A DNA stretch of 64,000 bases from NCBI GenBank assembly GCA_036676985.1, contig JAKFBU010000026.1, positions 1 to 64,000 on the forward strand, written 5' to 3'. This document shows, one piece after another, positions 45,020 to 58,331 of the stretch; position 1 is the stretch's first letter, and the number at the start of each line of letters is the position of its first letter. The notes under the pieces are model-generated. The model had not been told where the DNA came from. It made no database searches and saw only the letters and a list, made by a program, of their open reading frames with translations. A program made the position numbers and the translations under genes. The DNA is from Candidatus Sericytochromatia bacterium (GTDB taxonomy: Bacteria; Cyanobacteriota; Sericytochromatia; S15B-MN24; UBA4093).

Positions 45020-46417
45020 TTGAGCCTACCCATCCTGGTGACGCCGGCCGCCAAGCCGCTTCCGTCGAAGCCGACCACGTCTGCTACCCCCTCCGACAAG
45101 CCGTCCTTCTCGCAGGCCATCGGCAATGCCGAGCGCCGCACCGAGACGAAGCCTGTCGCGTCCGACAAGGACGTCGAGGTGAAGAGCACTCCGGACAAGG
45201 CGCTCGAAACGGCCCCCGAGGCCCCGGTCGCCGAGGAGCAGGCCCCGGTCGAGACACCCGTGGCGCAAGACCCCGTCGACCTCCAGATGATGGTCGCAGT
45301 CGCGAGCCAGGTCGCGCTGCCCGTGATCCAGGCGGTCGTCCAGCCGGTCCAGCAGGTCGTCGAGGTGAGCACCGCAGCGGCGCCCGTCGTCGAGACGGCC
45401 GCGCAGGCGCCCGTGCAGACGGCTCCCACCCATTCCAACACCCAGCAGGCCGTCGCCGAGCAGGTGAAGACCCCGGACGTCGCCGCCAAGGCCCCCGTGG
45501 CAATGCCGACCCAGGGCGATGCCCAGGCGAAGCCGGTCGACGCTCAGGTGGCGATCGCTCCCGCGGTCCAGCCCGAGACCGGCGACCAGCAAGGGGAGTC
45601 CCAGGATTCGCAGCCCCAGGCCGACAAGGGCCTCAAGGCTCCGGTGATGCCCGTGGCGACCCAGCAGGTGCCGCAGTCGATCGAGAGCCTGCGCGCCTCC
45701 GAGAAGGTCTCGACCCTCGTGAACGCGGCCCCCGAGGCCGCGATCGCCAAGGCACCGGTGGCGGATGCCGCCAAGCCCGCCCAGGACATCGCGACTGCGG
45801 CCCTCATGACCGAGGCGATGCAGGAAACCGAGACGGCTCAGCCGGCCGGCGAAACCGTCCGCCCCTGGCAGTTGCCGCACGCGGTGGGCAGCGCCGAGGT
45901 CCAGGCCCCGCAGGCCCAGGTCATCGAGGAGGGAGCGCCCACCGGCGAGCCCATGCCCATGCGCGAGGCCATGCGGACGACCTTCACGCAGGCCGCCAAG
46001 GAGCCAGGCAAGATGTCCGAGCTGCGCCTGCAGCTCACGCCCGAGCACCTCGGTCGCATGGAGATCCGCGTGATGTCCCACGAGGGCAACCTGAGCGCCC
46101 AGATCCGGGTGGACCACGCTCAGGCCCGCGACATGATGCAGGTCCAGATCGCCGAGCTGCGCCAGAGCCTCGCGGATCAGGGCATCAAGATCGATCGCCT
46201 GGAGGTCAGCGTCGGGCAGGACAAGCCGCGTGAGCAGTCCTTCGCCTTCGGCGGCAACCTCCAGCAGCAGACCGGACAGCAACAGCAGCAGGCCCACCAG
46301 CCCTCGACGGGCCGCGTGAGCTACTACGGCACCGAGACCTTCGACGAGGCGAGCGAGGAGGCCGAGGGCCTGCCGCTTGCGGGCGTCGGAGCGACGGCCG
46401 TCGATTACCAGGCCTAG
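45020..46417 (+). CDS. fliK: Hook-length control protein FliK
   Basis: P/A/Q-rich disordered region then LQLTPEHLGRMEI..LRQSL..QG T3S4 domain; precedes flgD. Confidence 0.9.
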   Translation: MSLPILVTPAAKPLPSKPTTSATPSDKPSFSQAIGNAERRTETKPVASDKDVEVKSTPDKALETAPEAPVAEEQAPVETPVAQDPVDLQMMVAVASQVALPVIQAVVQPVQQVVEVSTAAAPVVETAAQAPVQTAPTHSNTQQAVAEQVKTPDVAAKAPVAMPTQGDAQAKPVDAQVAIAPAVQPETGDQQGESQDSQPQADKGLKAPVMPVATQQVPQSIESLRASEKVSTLVNAAPEAAIAKAPVADAAKPAQDIATAALMTEAMQETETAQPAGETVRPWQLPHAVGSAEVQAPQAQVIEEGAPTGEPMPMREAMRTTFTQAAKEPGKMSELRLQLTPEHLGRMEIRVMSHEGNLSAQIRVDHAQARDMMQVQIAELRQSLADQGIKIDRLEVSVGQDKPREQSFAFGGNLQQQTGQQQQQAHQPSTGRVSYYGTETFDEASEEAEGLPLAGVGATAVDYQA

Positions 46418-46426
46418 GAGGAAGAC

Positions 46427-46852
46427 ATGGCAGAAACCAACGCCGTCACCGGAGCCGCCGGACAGGCCGCGACGCCCCCCGTCGCCAAGAAGAGCGCCGT
46501 CGGCAAGGACGACTTCCTCAAGCTGCTCGTGACGCAGCTCCGCTTCCAGGACCCCATGAACCCCATGGAGGACAAGGAGTTCATCGCTCAGATGGCTCAG
46601 TTCAACGCCCTGGAGGAGATGCAGAACCTCAACAAGAACCTCGCCGCGCAGAACGAGTTTGCCCAGCTGACGCAGGCCTCGAGCCTCATCGGCAAGACGG
46701 TGGCCATCAAGACCGACAGCGAGCACTTCGCCGGCAAGATCGTCGAGGTCCGGCGGATGGACGGAGAGCTCAAGGTCATGGTCAAACCGCTCGAGGGGGA
46801 TGAGCCCGCTCAACCGTACGATCTCGACAAGATCTCGCAAGTTACGGCCTAA
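46427..46852 (+). CDS. flgD: Hook capping protein FlgD
   Basis: GKDDFLKLLVTQL..QDP.NPM...EFIAQMAQF..LE, LIGKTV. Confidence 0.96.
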   Translation: MAETNAVTGAAGQAATPPVAKKSAVGKDDFLKLLVTQLRFQDPMNPMEDKEFIAQMAQFNALEEMQNLNKNLAAQNEFAQLTQASSLIGKTVAIKTDSEHFAGKIVEVRRMDGELKVMVKPLEGDEPAQPYDLDKISQVTA

Positions 46853-46857
46853 ATCGC

Positions 46858-46884
46858 TAAAGGTCGCGCTCGGCTGGTCGATAC
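46858..46884 (+). promoter_or_regulatory. Sigma28 (FliA/SigD)-type promoter
   Basis: TAAA-N15-GTCGATAC versus consensus TAAA-N15-GCCGATAA. Confidence 0.7.
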
Positions 46885-46902
46885 GGAGATCAGGAGACGC
46901 CA

Positions 46903-47286
46903 ATGGAACTCAACGACCTTCATTTCGCCACGGGGCCGGTCGGTCCCATCGCACCCCGGGTCCCGGTCCAGGCGCCAAGTTCGACGGAAGTCCCGGCTCA
47001 ATCCTTCGGGGCGGTCCTCGATACCAAGGAGCGAGAGGTCAAATTCTCAGGGCACGCCCTGGCTCGCCTCAAGTTCCGGAACATCGAGATGAACCCCGGC
47101 CGGATGGAGCGGTTGTCGGAAGCGATTGATCGAGCGGCCGCCAAGGGCGCGAGGGATTCGCTGGTCCTGATGGACGACACGGCCTTCGTCGTCTCGGTCA
47201 AGAATCGCACCGTCATCACCGCGGTCGACGGGGCGAGCCTCAAGGAAAACGTGTTCACCAAGATCGACAGCGCGGTCATCGTCTAG
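46903..47286 (+). CDS. Flagellar operon protein, TIGR02530 family
   Basis: KFS.HA..RL..R.I, A..KG..DSLVL.D..A.VVSVKNRTVITA, NVFT.IDSAVI; between flgD and flgE. Confidence 0.9.
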   Translation: MELNDLHFATGPVGPIAPRVPVQAPSSTEVPAQSFGAVLDTKEREVKFSGHALARLKFRNIEMNPGRMERLSEAIDRAAAKGARDSLVLMDDTAFVVSVKNRTVITAVDGASLKENVFTKIDSAVIV

Positions 47287-47308
47287 TTCAAGGTTTACGG
47301 TCATCACT

Positions 47309-47371
47309 GCAGGATAGGCTGGACCCGGAAGGGAAGCCGAGCGAAAGGCCAGACGCGCCTTCGCTACCTGC
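47309..47371 (+). ncRNA. Candidate structured cis-regulatory RNA in the flgE leader
   Basis: GCAGG/CCTGC closing stem enclosing GGCT..CCC-GGAA-GGG..AGCC and AGCGAAAGGC..GCCTTCGCT; ends 9 nt before the flgE RBS. Confidence 0.5.
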
Positions 47372-47394
47372 CTCGAGTATGAGGAGGAGCCCCG

Positions 47395-48732
47395 ATGCTT
47401 CGTTCGCTCAATTCCGGCGTTTCCGGTCTGCGCAACCAGCAGGTTCGCCTGGACGTCATCGGCAACAACATCGCCAACGTCAACACCGTGGGCTACAAGG
47501 CCCACCGCGTGAACTTCCAGGAGCAATTCTCGCAGACGCTGCGCGGCGGTTCGGCTCCGAGCGGGGCCCTGGGCGGCACCAACCCCACTCAGGTCGGTCT
47601 GGGCGTGACGGTCGGCTCCATCGACCTCATCCAGTCGCAGGGCTCCTTGAACCCGACCGGCAAGAACACGGACCTGGCCATCAGCGGTGAGGGCTTCTTC
47701 ATCATCAGCGACGGCAAGCAGCAGGTCTACACCCGCGATGGCGCCTTCGACTTCGACCGCTCGGGCAACCTGGTCAAGATCTCGAACGGATTCCGCGTGA
47801 TGGGCTGGAACGCTCAGATGCAGCCCAACGGCAGCGCCACGGTGGACACCTCGCGGGTTCCCGAGGCCCTCGTGGTTCCTGCCGGCACCACCCTCAACCC
47901 ACAGCCGACGAGCTACGTCAAGCTGGGCTCGAATCTCGAACAGCAATCGCCTGCCGGAAATGAGGCCCGCTCTTCAATCAGCATCTACGACTCGGCCGGT
48001 AACGTCCATAAGGGCAGCGTCGTATTTGAGCGGGACGCGGTGGTCAATACGTGGAACGTGTCGTTCATTCCGGATGATCAGACGATGTTCGATACCACCG
48101 GGGCTGGCTGGTCAGGCGTTACCACGCGTGAGCTGGCGCTGGGCAACATCACCTTCGATGACAAGGGCGTCTTGCTCAACAATGCGGTCTCCACACTCGA
48201 CCTGACGCCGTCGGCGCTCAACGCCGGTAAGTTCTCCAACCTCAGCATCACCCTCGATGTCGGCACGGTTGGCAAGACGGATGGCCTGACCCAGTTTGCC
48301 GACCCCAAGTCGGATGCCTCGACCGGCTACTACAACCACACGGCCGTCATGGTCGACCAGAACGGCTTCTCGTCGGGCGCCCTGTCCGGTGTCTCCATCG
48401 GCAGCGACGGCAAGATGATGGGCATCTTCACCAACGGCCGCACCCGCATCCTTGGCCAGGTGGCCATGGCGACCTTCACCAACCCGGTGGGTCTCGCGGT
48501 CAACGGCGACAACATCTTCGCCTCGACCCCCAACTCGGGTGAGCCGCAGGTCGGCATCGCCGGCTCGGGCTCGCGCGGCCTCATCGCCCCCGGCACCCTG
48601 GAGAATTCGAACGTGGACCTGGCGTCGTCCTTCGCGGACCTGATCGTCGCCCAGCGCGGTCTCCAGTCCAACTCGAAGATCATCACGTCGTCCGATGAGG
48701 TCCTCCAGGAGCTCATGAGCCTCAAGCGGTAG
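47395..48732 (+). CDS. flgE: Flagellar hook protein FlgE
   Basis: SGVSGL...Q..LDVIGNNIANVNTVGYK, DLAI.GEGFF, YTRDGAF, LE.SNVDLA..F..LIVAQRG. Confidence 0.96.
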   Translation: MLRSLNSGVSGLRNQQVRLDVIGNNIANVNTVGYKAHRVNFQEQFSQTLRGGSAPSGALGGTNPTQVGLGVTVGSIDLIQSQGSLNPTGKNTDLAISGEGFFIISDGKQQVYTRDGAFDFDRSGNLVKISNGFRVMGWNAQMQPNGSATVDTSRVPEALVVPAGTTLNPQPTSYVKLGSNLEQQSPAGNEARSSISIYDSAGNVHKGSVVFERDAVVNTWNVSFIPDDQTMFDTTGAGWSGVTTRELALGNITFDDKGVLLNNAVSTLDLTPSALNAGKFSNLSITLDVGTVGKTDGLTQFADPKSDASTGYYNHTAVMVDQNGFSSGALSGVSIGSDGKMMGIFTNGRTRILGQVAMATFTNPVGLAVNGDNIFASTPNSGEPQVGIAGSGSRGLIAPGTLENSNVDLASSFADLIVAQRGLQSNSKIITSSDEVLQELMSLKR

Positions 48733-48742
48733 GAGTTAGTCC

Positions 48743-49927
48743 TTGGATATCGGCGGCGTCGGGCTCGGCCCGACCGGATTCTCTGCGGTCCCGCCCGAAA
48801 CCGCCCTCGACCCGCAGCGGTCGGGCCTGGCGGGGGCGGTCCGCGAGAAGCTCGGTCAGGTGCGGCAGGCGCCGCTCGACCTTTTAAGCGACGAGCGATT
48901 GGGCCGGGAGCTGGAGTCTCTCGGCCTTCGCCCTGATGCGGGCAAGCTCCTGGCGGCGCGCGCCCTGATCAAGCTTCAGGGGCGCATCGACCCGACGTTG
49001 CTCGCCGACGTCGAGCGCAGCCTTCAGACGCTCGGCAATCCGGGACTGCCCGAGGCCGAGGCGGCGGCCTTCCTCGCCGCTCGACGCTTGCCTGCCACAC
49101 CGGACGCCATGTCGTGGGTGCTGGGTCGTCAGCACTCTCCCGAATCGGCCGGGGCCCGGATGATTGCCATCATCCAGCGGTTCGTGGCCGCCATGGCTGC
49201 CCGGACGGCGGGGCAAGGAACCCCAGCGGGGAGTGAATCCCCCCACCGGGGGGCGGGAGCCTCAAGCCAGGGGGCTACGACCGGGGCCAAGGCCAGTGAC
49301 CTGCTCAGCCAGCTCGAGAGCCTCACCTTGCCTGAAGGGGACGTCCAGAAGGTGACGGAGGGCCTCAGGCGTCTGGTGAACGCCATGCGGCCCCAGGAGG
49401 CCGACCTCGCGCGTGAGCAAGTGACCGTCGCCAAAGAGCGGCTGAGCGCCATGGCGGCCAAGGTCCTCGCCGAGTCGCCCCAGGAGGCCGGCGCGCGCGA
49501 GGTGCACGACGAGGCGCGCTTCCAGCAGGTCCGAAATGCTCGACAAGAGGGTCAGGAACCGCATGAATTCGTCATTCCCGTCTGGTGGAATGGTGGAAGC
49601 GGCGAGATCCGGGTACAAGAGCGTGCGAAGGGGGCGCCGCGACGCGCCGAGGAAGACTCGGCACCCGTACGGGTCGTGATGTCCCTGAATACACCTCACC
49701 TCGGGCCCTTGCGCGTCGATTTACTTTTGGCCCAGCGCCAGGTAAACTGTCTGGTCGCTGTGCAAGATCAAGGCGCTGCCGACTTTCTGACGCCGCGTCT
49801 GACGGAATTACGCTCAGCCATCGAGGAAACAGGTATCCACGTCCACGTGATGGGCATGAAGCCCTTCGCCCCGGACGACGGACACCCGGATCCGGGTGAC
49901 GCCAAGGGCGTGGATTACTACGGGTAG
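48743..49927 (+). CDS. Second FliK-like (T3S4 C-terminal domain) protein
   Basis: C-terminal L.TPHLGPLRV.L......V.C....L..L...I...G; precedes a stand-alone FlhB-C gene. Confidence 0.65.
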   Translation: MDIGGVGLGPTGFSAVPPETALDPQRSGLAGAVREKLGQVRQAPLDLLSDERLGRELESLGLRPDAGKLLAARALIKLQGRIDPTLLADVERSLQTLGNPGLPEAEAAAFLAARRLPATPDAMSWVLGRQHSPESAGARMIAIIQRFVAAMAARTAGQGTPAGSESPHRGAGASSQGATTGAKASDLLSQLESLTLPEGDVQKVTEGLRRLVNAMRPQEADLAREQVTVAKERLSAMAAKVLAESPQEAGAREVHDEARFQQVRNARQEGQEPHEFVIPVWWNGGSGEIRVQERAKGAPRRAEEDSAPVRVVMSLNTPHLGPLRVDLLLAQRQVNCLVAVQDQGAADFLTPRLTELRSAIEETGIHVHVMGMKPFAPDDGHPDPGDAKGVDYYG

Positions 49928-49933
49928 GGCGCG

Positions 49934-50221
49934 ATGGCCGAGTCGGAAGACGAGCTGAAGCAGGCGGTCGCGCTGCGCTACGAGGACGGGGTCGACGAGG
50001 CTCCGCGCATCGTCGCTGCAGGCAAGGGGCTGGTCGCCGAGAAGATTCTGACCTTGGCCGTCGAAAATGACGTGGCCATTCATCGGGATCCGCTCTTGGT
50101 GCAGGGGTTGGCCGCCCTGGAAGTCGGTGAGCAGATTCCCGCCGAGTTCTACCCGATGGTGGCCGAGATTCTGGTGTTCGTGCAGCGCATGAACCGGGAG
50201 AAGGGAAACGAACGGCGTTGA
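49934..50221 (+). CDS. Stand-alone FlhB C-terminal-domain protein (EscU/YscU-like, FlhX type)
   Basis: AVALRY....APRIVA.GKG..AEKI...A....V.I, IP.E.Y..VAEIL. Confidence 0.9.
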   Translation: MAESEDELKQAVALRYEDGVDEAPRIVAAGKGLVAEKILTLAVENDVAIHRDPLLVQGLAALEVGEQIPAEFYPMVAEILVFVQRMNREKGNERR

Positions 50222-57260: not shown

Positions 57261-58331
57261 ATGGCCGAGGACAAGGAGCAAAAGACAGAAGCCCCCTCCG
57301 GGAAACGCATCTCCGATGCCCGGAAAAAGGGGAACATCCCCAAGAGCGCGGACTTCAGCTCGGCGGTGGTGCTCATGGCGTCGGCCTTCATGCTGCTCTT
57401 CTGGTGGCGCGGGGTGGTCGACACCCTGCGGGCACGCATGATCGTGACCTTCTCGGACCTGCCGACGGGTGATCTGACCATCGAGGGTCTCCGTCACCTC
57501 GCCATCGAGCTCAGCCGCGAGGGTTTCCTGCTGCTTGCGCCCTTCATGCTGAGCTTGCTCCTGATCGGCATCGTCACCAACGGCATCCAGACCCGCTTCA
57601 ACATCTCGACCGAGCTGATGAAGCCCTCCTTCGCCAAGCTCAATCCCATCAACGGCATCAAGCGCATCTTCTCGCTGCGCGGGGTGGTCGAGACCATCAA
57701 GGGCATCGTCAAGATCGTCATCGTGGGCTTCTTCAGCTTCCTGGTCATCCGGGACCGTTACGAGCAGATCGTCACGGCCGTGCAGATGGATCGCCAGCAG
57801 CTGGGCGCCCTGGTCGGGGACACGGCCTGGACCATCGCATGGCAATCGGCCCTCGCCCTCTTCATCGTGGGCGTCGCGGACTACGCCTACCAGCGCTGGG
57901 AGTGGTGGCGCAACCTCAAGATGACCAAGCAGGAGGTCAAGGACGAGCACAAGCAGATGGAGGGCTCCCAAGAGGTCAAGGGCGAGATCAAGAAGCGCCA
58001 GCGCCGCGCGGCGCTGCGCCGCATGATGCAGGACGTCCCCAAGGCGAGCGTCGTCATCACCAACCCGACGCACTACGCCGTGGCCATCCAGTACGAACGC
58101 GAGCACATGGAGGTGCCCGTCGTCGTGGCCAAGGGCGCTGACCTCATCGCCAAGAAGATCCGGGACATCGCCCGCGAGCACAACGTGCCCATGGTCGAGA
58201 ACAAGCCCGTCGCCCAGGCCCTCTACCGTCAGGTGGAGGTGGGGGACGAGATCCCGCCCGACATGTACGCCGTCATCGCCGAGATCCTGGTGGCCGTCTC
58301 CCGGGCCGATCGGCGCGCGGCTCGGAGTTGA
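57261..58331 (+). CDS. flhB: Export switch protein FlhB
   Basis: KTE.P..KR..DAR.KG, KMTKQEVKDE.K..EG, NPTH autocleavage motif. Confidence 0.97.
   Translation: MAEDKEQKTEAPSGKRISDARKKGNIPKSADFSSAVVLMASAFMLLFWWRGVVDTLRARMIVTFSDLPTGDLTIEGLRHLAIELSREGFLLLAPFMLSLLLIGIVTNGIQTRFNISTELMKPSFAKLNPINGIKRIFSLRGVVETIKGIVKIVIVGFFSFLVIRDRYEQIVTAVQMDRQQLGALVGDTAWTIAWQSALALFIVGVADYAYQRWEWWRNLKMTKQEVKDEHKQMEGSQEVKGEIKKRQRRAALRRMMQDVPKASVVITNPTHYAVAIQYEREHMEVPVVVAKGADLIAKKIRDIAREHNVPMVENKPVAQALYRQVEVGDEIPPDMYAVIAEILVAVSRADRRAARS

Follow-up and report, generated by a model that had tools for sequence, protein, structure and literature searches.

Why should a compact, foldable RNA lie between two genes of a flagellar operon? 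The question is raised by a flagellar cluster in a 64,000-nucleotide (nt) stretch from a Candidatus Sericytochromatia bacterium (GenBank assembly GCA_036676985.1, contig JAKFBU010000026.1, positions 1–64,000; hereafter the window), in which fliI, fliJ, fliK and flgD are followed by a gene of the TIGR02530 family, a 108-nt spacer and the hook gene flgE. A sequence-only reading of the window had proposed that the spacer RNA is bound or processed by the TIGR02530 protein as a switch for hook synthesis, and every element that it named was found in place. We find that the spacer RNA is conserved and structured. It is almost certainly functional and very probably regulates the downstream gene in cis. 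The best explanation, judging from sequence comparisons, is that the spacer would be one copy of a widespread, uncatalogued cis-acting RNA found in the leaders of genes for flagellar axial proteins (those of the hook and distal rod, and sometimes flagellin or flgB). The TIGR02530 protein is a tentative candidate for the partner of this leader.

The features concerned are the following:

46903–47286, + strand: gene of the TIGR02530 / PF12611 "Flagellar_put" family, 127 aa, by family profile matches (116.7 bits against a cut-off of 83.2, and 46.6 bits against a cut-off of 21.1, respectively)
47287–47394, + strand: spacer between the TIGR02530 gene and flgE, 108 nt
47307–47374, + strand: conserved RNA core, matched by covariance model R2 (72.1 bits, E = 4.4e-15)
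47309–47313, + strand: 5' strand of helix P1, GCAGG, pairing with CCTGC at 47367–47371
47317–47338, + strand: hairpin P2, consisting of P2a (GGCT/AGCC, 47317–47320/47335–47338) and P2b (47324–47326/47331–47333)
47340–47365, + strand: hairpin P3, stem AGCGAAAGGC/GCCTTCGCT (47340–47349/47357–47365) with one bulged A
47367–47371, + strand: 3' strand of helix P1, CCTGC, pairing with GCAGG at 47309–47313
47381–47389, + strand: Shine-Dalgarno (SD) region of flgE, GAGGAGGAG, read from the sequence, 9 nt past P1
47395–48732, + strand: flgE (hook protein), 445 aa, ATG at 47395 (NF004241, 387.4 bits; TIGR03506, 277.8 bits)

A conserved, structured RNA between the TIGR02530 gene and flgE

The proposed three-way junction of P1, P2 and P3 is exactly the minimum-free-energy fold of both the spacer and its 68-nt core. 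Within P2, which is capped by CCC-GGAA-GGG (apical loop 47327–47330), an internal loop sets GGA (47321–47323) opposite a single A (47334). The 7-nt loop of P3, CAGACGC (47350–47356), bears a conserved C-N-G-A. The RNA had been said to end shortly before the flgE ribosome-binding site and not to be a terminator; P1 indeed stops 9 nt short of the SD, and the + strand holds no terminator-like site. One fold pairs the 5' strand of P3 with flgE codons 3–6 instead; we rejected such pairing as a general mechanism because P3 stems vary across lineages.

Folding energy does not single out the spacer. The fold z-score was −0.95 for the whole 108 nt (equalled or bettered by 38 of 200 shuffles) and −1.94 for the 68-nt core (10 of 200), and we rejected energy as the sole evidence for a spacer RNA. 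Both the fold and the promoter-like site described below are above chance because they are conserved in relatives.

We searched 41 related genomes for TIGR02530 and found 22 loci in 22 genomes; Bacillus subtilis, run as a control, had no TIGR02530 match. As in the window, the gene lies between flgD and flgE in all 22, with flgE 82–200 nt past it (in one locus, L019, the contig stops after the first 22 residues of flgE). The same RNA element, with compensatory changes, is present in 22/22 of these TIGR02530 loci of the order. In a plain alignment of the 22 spacers the GGAC of the P2 5' strand is invariant, and so are the C, G and A of the C-N-G-A in the P3 loop (22/22 each). From 16 spacers aligned plainly with MAFFT, RNAalifold recovered just seven pairs because loop lengths differ; we therefore seeded a covariance model by hand with two sequences, the window and a same-genus relative, using the structure put forward in the sequence-only reading, and then iterated. 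At E ≤ 0.02, the two-sequence model picked out the element in 14 of the 22 loci. The second model, R2, gave its sole strong match in the window, and indeed in the whole 4.68-Mb genome, at the spacer, and it found a single copy in each of 15 genomes among the 27 that represent the order. The remaining seven TIGR02530-positive genomes (family f3) have a long insert in P2 and were not matched by R2; their spacers share the same invariant bases, and five of the seven fold unaided into the same junction.

In the resulting alignment of the order (A6), which is fitted to the model and so biased toward the structure, 99.2% of cells were paired and 12 of 20 pairs had changed on both sides. None of 500 shuffles reached the observed values on four of five measures (nine did on the fifth), and pairing fell to 41%–55% when partners were slid. 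Double changes affected two of the five P1 pairs and seven of the eight P3 pairs; P2a and P2b both covary, here and in the 100-copy alignment presented below. Conservation and covariation of the spacer across TIGR02530–flgE loci, the check that had been set beforehand, were both found, within the order as well as in other phyla. Also, in genus g7 of the order, the minimum-free-energy fold takes a long-range pairing between the SD and P2 in place of P2.

A comparison with Rfam 15, the other check proposed for this RNA, matched no known family: there were 0 matches at E ≤ 10 in positions 46000–48500 of the window, and no family hit the spacer at E ≤ 1 in ten loci of other taxa.

Related copies in other phyla and before other flagellar genes

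An alignment-based search for TIGR02530, limited to one genome per species, returned 573 relatives, of which the best 80 were kept. Nearest among these 80 were metagenome-assembled genomes (MAGs) of Candidatus Sericytochromatia and Tanganyikabacteria; the rest were mostly Bacillota, with some Armatimonadota, Fibrobacterota and others. R2 gave 31 matches at E ≤ 1 in the 80 loci, all on the + strand and directly past TIGR02530. By eye, most spacers beyond the order open with a hairpin of the P2 design, often beginning at the stop codon, followed by a second hairpin with a 12-nt loop, N-GA-NN-GA-NN-GA-N. Five MAG labels fit poorly (L041, L059, L072, L075 and L088: Methanoregulaceae archaeon, Methylocystaceae, Betaproteobacteria, Deltaproteobacteria and Solirubrobacterales) and are probably mis-binned contigs or mislabels; the Solirubrobacterales-labelled locus looks Bacillota-like.

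An unfitted MAFFT alignment of 38 Bacillota-type copies had 90.8% of cells paired and double changes at 10 of 15 pairs (0/500 shuffles). The model built from it, R3, gave 61 matches in 85 loci, every one of them in the spacer; eight fell in loci of the window's order, the window's own copy not being among them. We link the Sericytochromatia and Bacillota variants because they share their position and invariant bases and because of these cross-hits to other members of the order. At its core the element has two hairpins, of which the P1-closed three-way junction is a lineage variant.

Whole-genome scans of ten carrier genomes revealed further copies between a rod gene and a flgG-type gene and before flagellin, sometimes directly past a sigma-28-like promoter. 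One Sporomusa genome had four copies. In a single case (L154; G056:C34:4983-8037) a GC-rich hairpin with a U-run comes after the motif, with flgB and flgC beyond it, which is the layout of a transcription attenuator. From a phylum sample of 151 genomes we fetched 40 copies located away from TIGR02530. Scanning the downstream open reading frames (ORFs) of 39 of them identified 35 of the FlgE/F/G family, one flagellin, two cell-envelope enzymes and one without a family, and the ORF after the 40th looks flagellin-like by eye. The sequence-only reading had envisaged a switch for hook synthesis; the RNA is not special to flgE, since in other phyla flgG-type rod genes, flagellin and flgB have this motif before them too, and it is therefore a general flagellar leader element.

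The two cases with cell-envelope enzymes, L196 and L209, have copies past the end of a rod gene; what comes next there is a LytR-CpsA-Psr gene and a WecG/TagA glycosyltransferase gene, respectively, in place of a flagellar gene. One Bacillota genome (G054) holds two flgD–TIGR02530–motif–rod/hook loci (L151 and L155) and two FlhA genes, and thus two flagellar sets, each with its own copy.

P2b differs by type of copy (CCUC/GAGG before flgE; CUGC/GCAG or CCGC/GCGG before flgG), thereby adding compensatory changes. In an alignment of 100 copies (98 distinct), 94.6% of cells were paired, 13 of 15 pairs had double changes, and the covariation score was 0.587 versus 0.213 for shuffles (0/500); slid controls paired at 38%–60%. 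The unpaired bases are nearly fixed. The internal-loop G, G and A are present in 100, 100 and 99 of the 100 copies, facing an A in 80 and a G in 20, and the three GA steps of the hairpin loop are kept in 97–98. The size of the GA loop differs between lineages, at 12 nt with three GA in Bacillota and 7–8 nt with one GA in the lineage of the window.

In 41 of 72 loci (L038–L117, last 25 nt before flgE) the flgE SD reads GGAGGUC, against a background frequency of 49 in 737. The sequence is complementary to GACCUC, the P2 5' strand. We rejected SD sequestration by GACCUC/GAGGUC as a general mechanism, as the pairing is missing in most flgG copies (by eye) and amounts to 4 bp in the window.

TIGR02530 presence tracks motif presence. 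In a class sample of 61 genomes, 39 had rod/hook genes, 35 had TIGR02530 and 32 had the motif, the latter being present in 32/35 TIGR02530-positive genomes versus 0/4 flagellated TIGR02530-negative ones. Across the phylum sample, 105 of the 151 genomes had the gene, 94 the motif and 93 both (93/105 TIGR02530-positive genomes versus 1/18 that were FlhA-positive and TIGR02530-negative). Restricting the count to copies away from the gene gave 42/105 versus 1/18 (Fisher p = 0.003, a significance overstated, as with all of these co-occurrence tests, by ignoring relatedness).

The TIGR02530 protein and the putative promoter of its gene

What kind of protein does the gene next to the motif encode? 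An AlphaFold2 model built from an 87-sequence alignment (predicted local distance difference test score, pLDDT, 77.8) predicts a disordered stretch over approximately residues 1–33, followed by three helices and four strands in the order helix-helix-helix-strand-strand-strand-strand. When the model was compared with 48,161 chains, nearly all top rows were toxins of the RelE/ParE type, aligned over residues 40–120. The best Z-scores (ParE1 6.0; Cami1 and PfiT 5.7; HP0892 5.6; RelE1, HigB2 and YafQ 5.3) lie in the range of 5–6 that the tool itself calls common or middling, with lower rows for RelE (5.1), YoeB (4.4), BrnT (3.3) and RegB (3.2). A sequence search of the PDB with the family profile returned noise only (E ≥ 0.39).

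Profile comparisons point the same way. Of 87 family members, 48 matched PF14076 (DUF4258) weakly (E ≤ 10; best 5.4e-4), none reaching the Pfam threshold. Aligning the family with 16 DUF4258 proteins in hhalign gave a probability of 87.7% (E = 3.4e-6, 64 columns) and superposed an S-x-H-A-x-x-R-x-x-x-R-x-I motif and a VVS..N..VITA motif. DUF4258 belongs to the RelE/ParE (BECR) superfamily, and flagella are not mentioned alongside it in the accessible parts of the two sources (PMC11980606; bioRxiv 10.64898/2026.08.28.747851). Flagellar_put itself appears as "Function unknown" in a table of a 2026 preprint (PMC13277936). The sequence-only reading had guessed at a RelE/BrnT-like fold: the RelE/ParE (BECR, DUF4258-like) assignment probably holds as a fold class, on the evidence of the predicted model and the DUF4258 profile, with Z-scores of just 5–6. 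No antitoxin gene adjoins TIGR02530, which is flanked by flgD and flgE with no family-bearing ORF in between, so this is not a classical toxin–antitoxin module.

Past the disordered N-terminus the protein carries an F35-x-x-[VI]-L39 motif (F in 86/86 and L or F in 87/87 family members). This resembles the gate-recognition motif of FlgD, 36-FLTLL-40, and its spacing rule (PMC8983047), and suggests that TIGR02530 may be exported by the flagellar apparatus. A complex prediction for the FlhB cytoplasmic domain with TIGR02530 scored 0.56 (control 0.54) and speaks neither for nor against contact. According to another report, megaphage G encodes a TIGR02530-family homologue, ps41/gp136, that was not detected in its proteome (10.1101/2024.12.16.628780); the family would thus also occur in a phage.

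Upstream of the gene the window has these features:

46427–46852, + strand: flgD (hook cap protein), the gene 5' of TIGR02530 (PF03963 FlgD, 84.9 bits; NF007197, 121.9 bits)
46858–46884, + strand: sigma-28-type promoter-like site, TAAA (46858–46861), 15 nt, GTCGATAC (46877–46884)

The consensus for sigma-28 (FliA) consists of TAAA-N15-GCCGATAA-like elements, with which the site agrees at 4/4 and 6/8 positions. The site had been noticed in the sequence-only reading. It is present as described, ends 18 nt 5' of the TIGR02530 start codon and keeps its position in sister genera. An identical TAAA-N15-GTCGATAC occupies the same place in a same-genus locus (L007). At the same distance from the start codon, genus g3 has TAAA-N15-ACCGATAT (L019) or TAAA-N15-ACCGACAT (L020, L022) and genus g2 has TCAA-N15-GCCGATGA. 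The intervening sequence differs among these loci, and the positions of the elements are kept in g1, g2 and g3. No such site was found at the related TIGR02530 loci of families f3 and f4. The pattern occurs once in the window (0.14 expected; at least one match in 14/100 shuffles), and a scan of the whole genome with a loose sigma-28 pattern returned for the most part noise from coding regions, with no regulon standing out.

The contig also bears a FliA/WhiG gene, ∼27 kb downstream (73841–74506; TIGR02479, 265.1 bits against a cut-off of 189.6); it is the single one of 11 FliA/WhiG-like matches in the genome to exceed the family cut-off. An RNA-library contig from a ∼92%-identical relative spans TIGR02530 and flgE and begins 11 nt past the −10 element. 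The same contig has 75 other letters in place of spacer positions 47288–47365 (78 nt, most of the motif core), and its start is a weak hint at most. We consider a putative internal promoter of the sigma-28 type plausible for family f1.

On the 3' side of flgE, the cluster continues with a FliK-like gene, a small FlhB-C-terminal-like gene, flbD and motA. The first of these, a second FliK-like gene straight after flgE (48743–49927), is exactly at the PF02120 threshold (29.8 bits), and the next (49934–50221) encodes a free-standing 95-aa protein with the FlhB C-terminal domain only (TIGR00789, 87.1 bits, under its cut-off). The true fliK (45020–46417) and flhB (57261–58331) are elsewhere in the window. 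Another contig of the genome has a second full-length FlhB homologue (C4:104270–105319, 360.6 bits), which may belong to a second export apparatus or flagellar set.

Possible function of the leader RNA

What would such a leader do? Its stems vary freely, and a few unpaired bases are fixed across phyla, which makes a leader recognised by a protein the simplest reading. The motif stands before several axial-protein genes and is lost with one gene for an RNA-toxin fold, which puts TIGR02530 forward as its possible reader or cutter. The core consists of two hairpins, P2 with an invariant 5'-GGA-3' internal loop opposite a single purine and P3 with a loop displaying GA, which P1 closes into a three-way junction in the window's lineage. 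This leader would be the recognition site of the TIGR02530 protein encoded directly upstream, itself perhaps a domesticated RNA-handling fold of the RelE/ParE type (BECR, DUF4258-like). By binding or cutting the leader, the protein would set the amount of FlgE, and elsewhere of FlgG or flagellin, that long flagellar transcripts yield. A sigma-28-type promoter inside the operon probably also drives transcription of TIGR02530, the RNA and flgE. We give a probability of about 0.45 to this reading, in which TIGR02530 binds or cuts the leader and thereby adjusts how much hook, rod and filament protein is made. The physical contact between protein and RNA, and its effect on translation or mRNA stability, are what we infer, with genomic co-occurrence as the support.

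Several observations weigh against a leader read by TIGR02530. The co-occurrence is confounded by shared descent, and the commonest motif copy adjoins the gene, so that a loss of the gene would take it away as well. In one genome, G141, the motif precedes flgG, and the family profile finds no TIGR02530 there even at E ≤ 1. Conversely, the motif was not found in 12/105 TIGR02530-positive genomes of the phylum sample and 3/35 of the class sample, and several TIGR02530 loci of Armatimonadota have no motif. The Bacillota-trained R3 finds nothing in the window's genome at E ≤ 1. The gap from motif to start codon ranges from 14 to 275 nt, with no common expression platform seen. On the side of the protein, the fold-search scores are middling, as noted, Foldseek finds nothing in the PDB at E ≤ 0.001 with the TIGR02530 model, and DUF4258 itself has no known activity according to PMC11980606.

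Other explanations account for some of the same facts. That the spacer is a functionless chance fold of GC-rich sequence is scarcely credible: the modest energy z-scores would allow it, but the element recurs at the same place with compensatory conservation in 22/22 related loci and in other phyla, and as a single copy in a 4.68-Mb genome. A passive mRNA element, namely a stabilising structure or a processing or barrier site for general RNases that works without a dedicated factor, would favour the output of abundant axial proteins over that of upstream genes. It agrees with the placement of the motif between co-directional genes where more copies are needed of what the downstream one encodes (flgD/TIGR02530–flgE; flgF-like–flgG) and with promoter-proximal copies that, by eye, begin ∼13–28 nt from a sigma-28-like −10 element, near the expected 5' end. 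We nevertheless regard it as unlikely, as a hairpin of this sort would not need invariant unpaired GGA and GA across phyla while stems change freely, nor would it be expected to vanish along with one small protein gene.

A riboswitch-like sensor would have a small molecule or an ion as its ligand, for example a motility second messenger, and act without TIGR02530. Its appeal lies in the compact fold, the covarying stems, the invariant unpaired bases of the internal and hairpin loops and the presence of the motif before several different flagellar genes; a terminator-like hairpin with a U-run comes after the flgB copy, and an alternative pairing between the frequent GGAGGUC SD and the P2 5' strand is conceivable. 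The idea is rendered improbable by the variable gap, with no recurring expression platform seen, by a core that is small for a binding pocket and whose 12-nt GA loop is down to 7 nt in the window's lineage, by the near absence of the motif from flagellated TIGR02530-negative genomes (1/18) and by the lack of any match to an Rfam riboswitch. More doubtful still is the binding of the motif by another post-transcriptional regulator of flagella in place of TIGR02530, such as CsrA (with FliW). CsrA sites are brought to mind by the invariant GGA and by an SD that contains GGA, and a csrA-like gene lies directly 5' of one flagellin-leader copy (L146, by eye). Here the GGA is in an internal loop between stable helices and not in a hairpin loop, and the P3 loop has GA, not GGA. 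Within the order, 26 of 27 genomes have CsrA, which thus does not discriminate; among them are genomes without the motif (g4, g5, g14), whereas TIGR02530 does track it.

The reading in which TIGR02530 handles the leader has an extension that we regard as a long shot. By analogy with FlgM, an early-exported TIGR02530 might gate the mRNAs that bear the GGA/GA leader motif. While the export gate is closed, the protein would accumulate and hold down or process flgE, flgG and flagellin mRNAs with the motif; once export starts, it would be pumped out and axial-protein synthesis released. This would be an RNA-level counterpart of FlgM at the rod/hook stage, spread over Bacillota, Sericytochromatia and other phyla. 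In the FlgM–sigma-28 export checkpoint, too, a regulator is removed by the flagellar export apparatus, which would be the point in common if TIGR02530 is exported; the difference is that TIGR02530 would act on RNA and not on a sigma factor, at the rod/hook stage.

Comparison with other known systems places the candidate leader between several of them. CsrA–FliW controls the flagellin (hag/flaA) leader in Bacillus and Campylobacter. BECR members cut RNA, and RegB, the phage T4 endoribonuclease, cuts at GGAG in SD regions. A c-di-GMP-I (cyclic di-GMP) riboswitch lies upstream of flgB in Clostridioides difficile. As in CsrA–FliW (cf. PMC4894983), a flagellar structural gene would be controlled post-transcriptionally through a protein-bound leader near the SD, tied to the state of assembly; unlike it, our motif combines an internal-loop GGA with a GA loop instead of GGA hairpin loops, its targets include hook and rod genes besides flagellin, and the candidate protein has a BECR fold and is not CsrA. 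TIGR02530 has in common with the RelE/ParE (BECR) toxins, including DUF4258, the fold class and the H-A-x-x-R-x-x-x-R motif, and it differs from them in lacking an adjacent antitoxin, in being a fixed part of flagellar operons and in its extra disordered N-terminus. A structured RNA adjoining the gene of its proposed binder or cutter recalls the autoregulatory leaders of ribosomal proteins and the type III toxin–antitoxin system ToxIN. In contrast to those, the RNA is also found at distant loci before other genes, which makes it look like a small regulon and not self-control only. The C. difficile riboswitch is likewise a structured leader before a flagellar operon, and one of the present copies precedes flgB; the motif has no Rfam match to GEMM-I or GEMM-II, and its architecture differs.

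We found no description of this RNA in the main texts of the papers searched (the supplements of large motif-discovery papers could list it). What would be new is a leader RNA with a proposed dedicated protein, built from new parts; the kind itself is already known. Post-transcriptional control of the flagellar rod and hook genes is poorly known beyond a few model species, and cultivable carriers exist, among them Sporomusa, Pelosinus, Syntrophomonas and Thermoanaerobacter. If our reading is true, there would be a new structured RNA family across many phyla, with 94 carriers among the 151 genomes of one phylum sample, a testable function for an orphan flagellar-operon protein, and a toxin-type RNase fold recruited to the control of organelle assembly. 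A conserved RNA that travels with a toxin-like protein points to an undescribed control of flagellum building.

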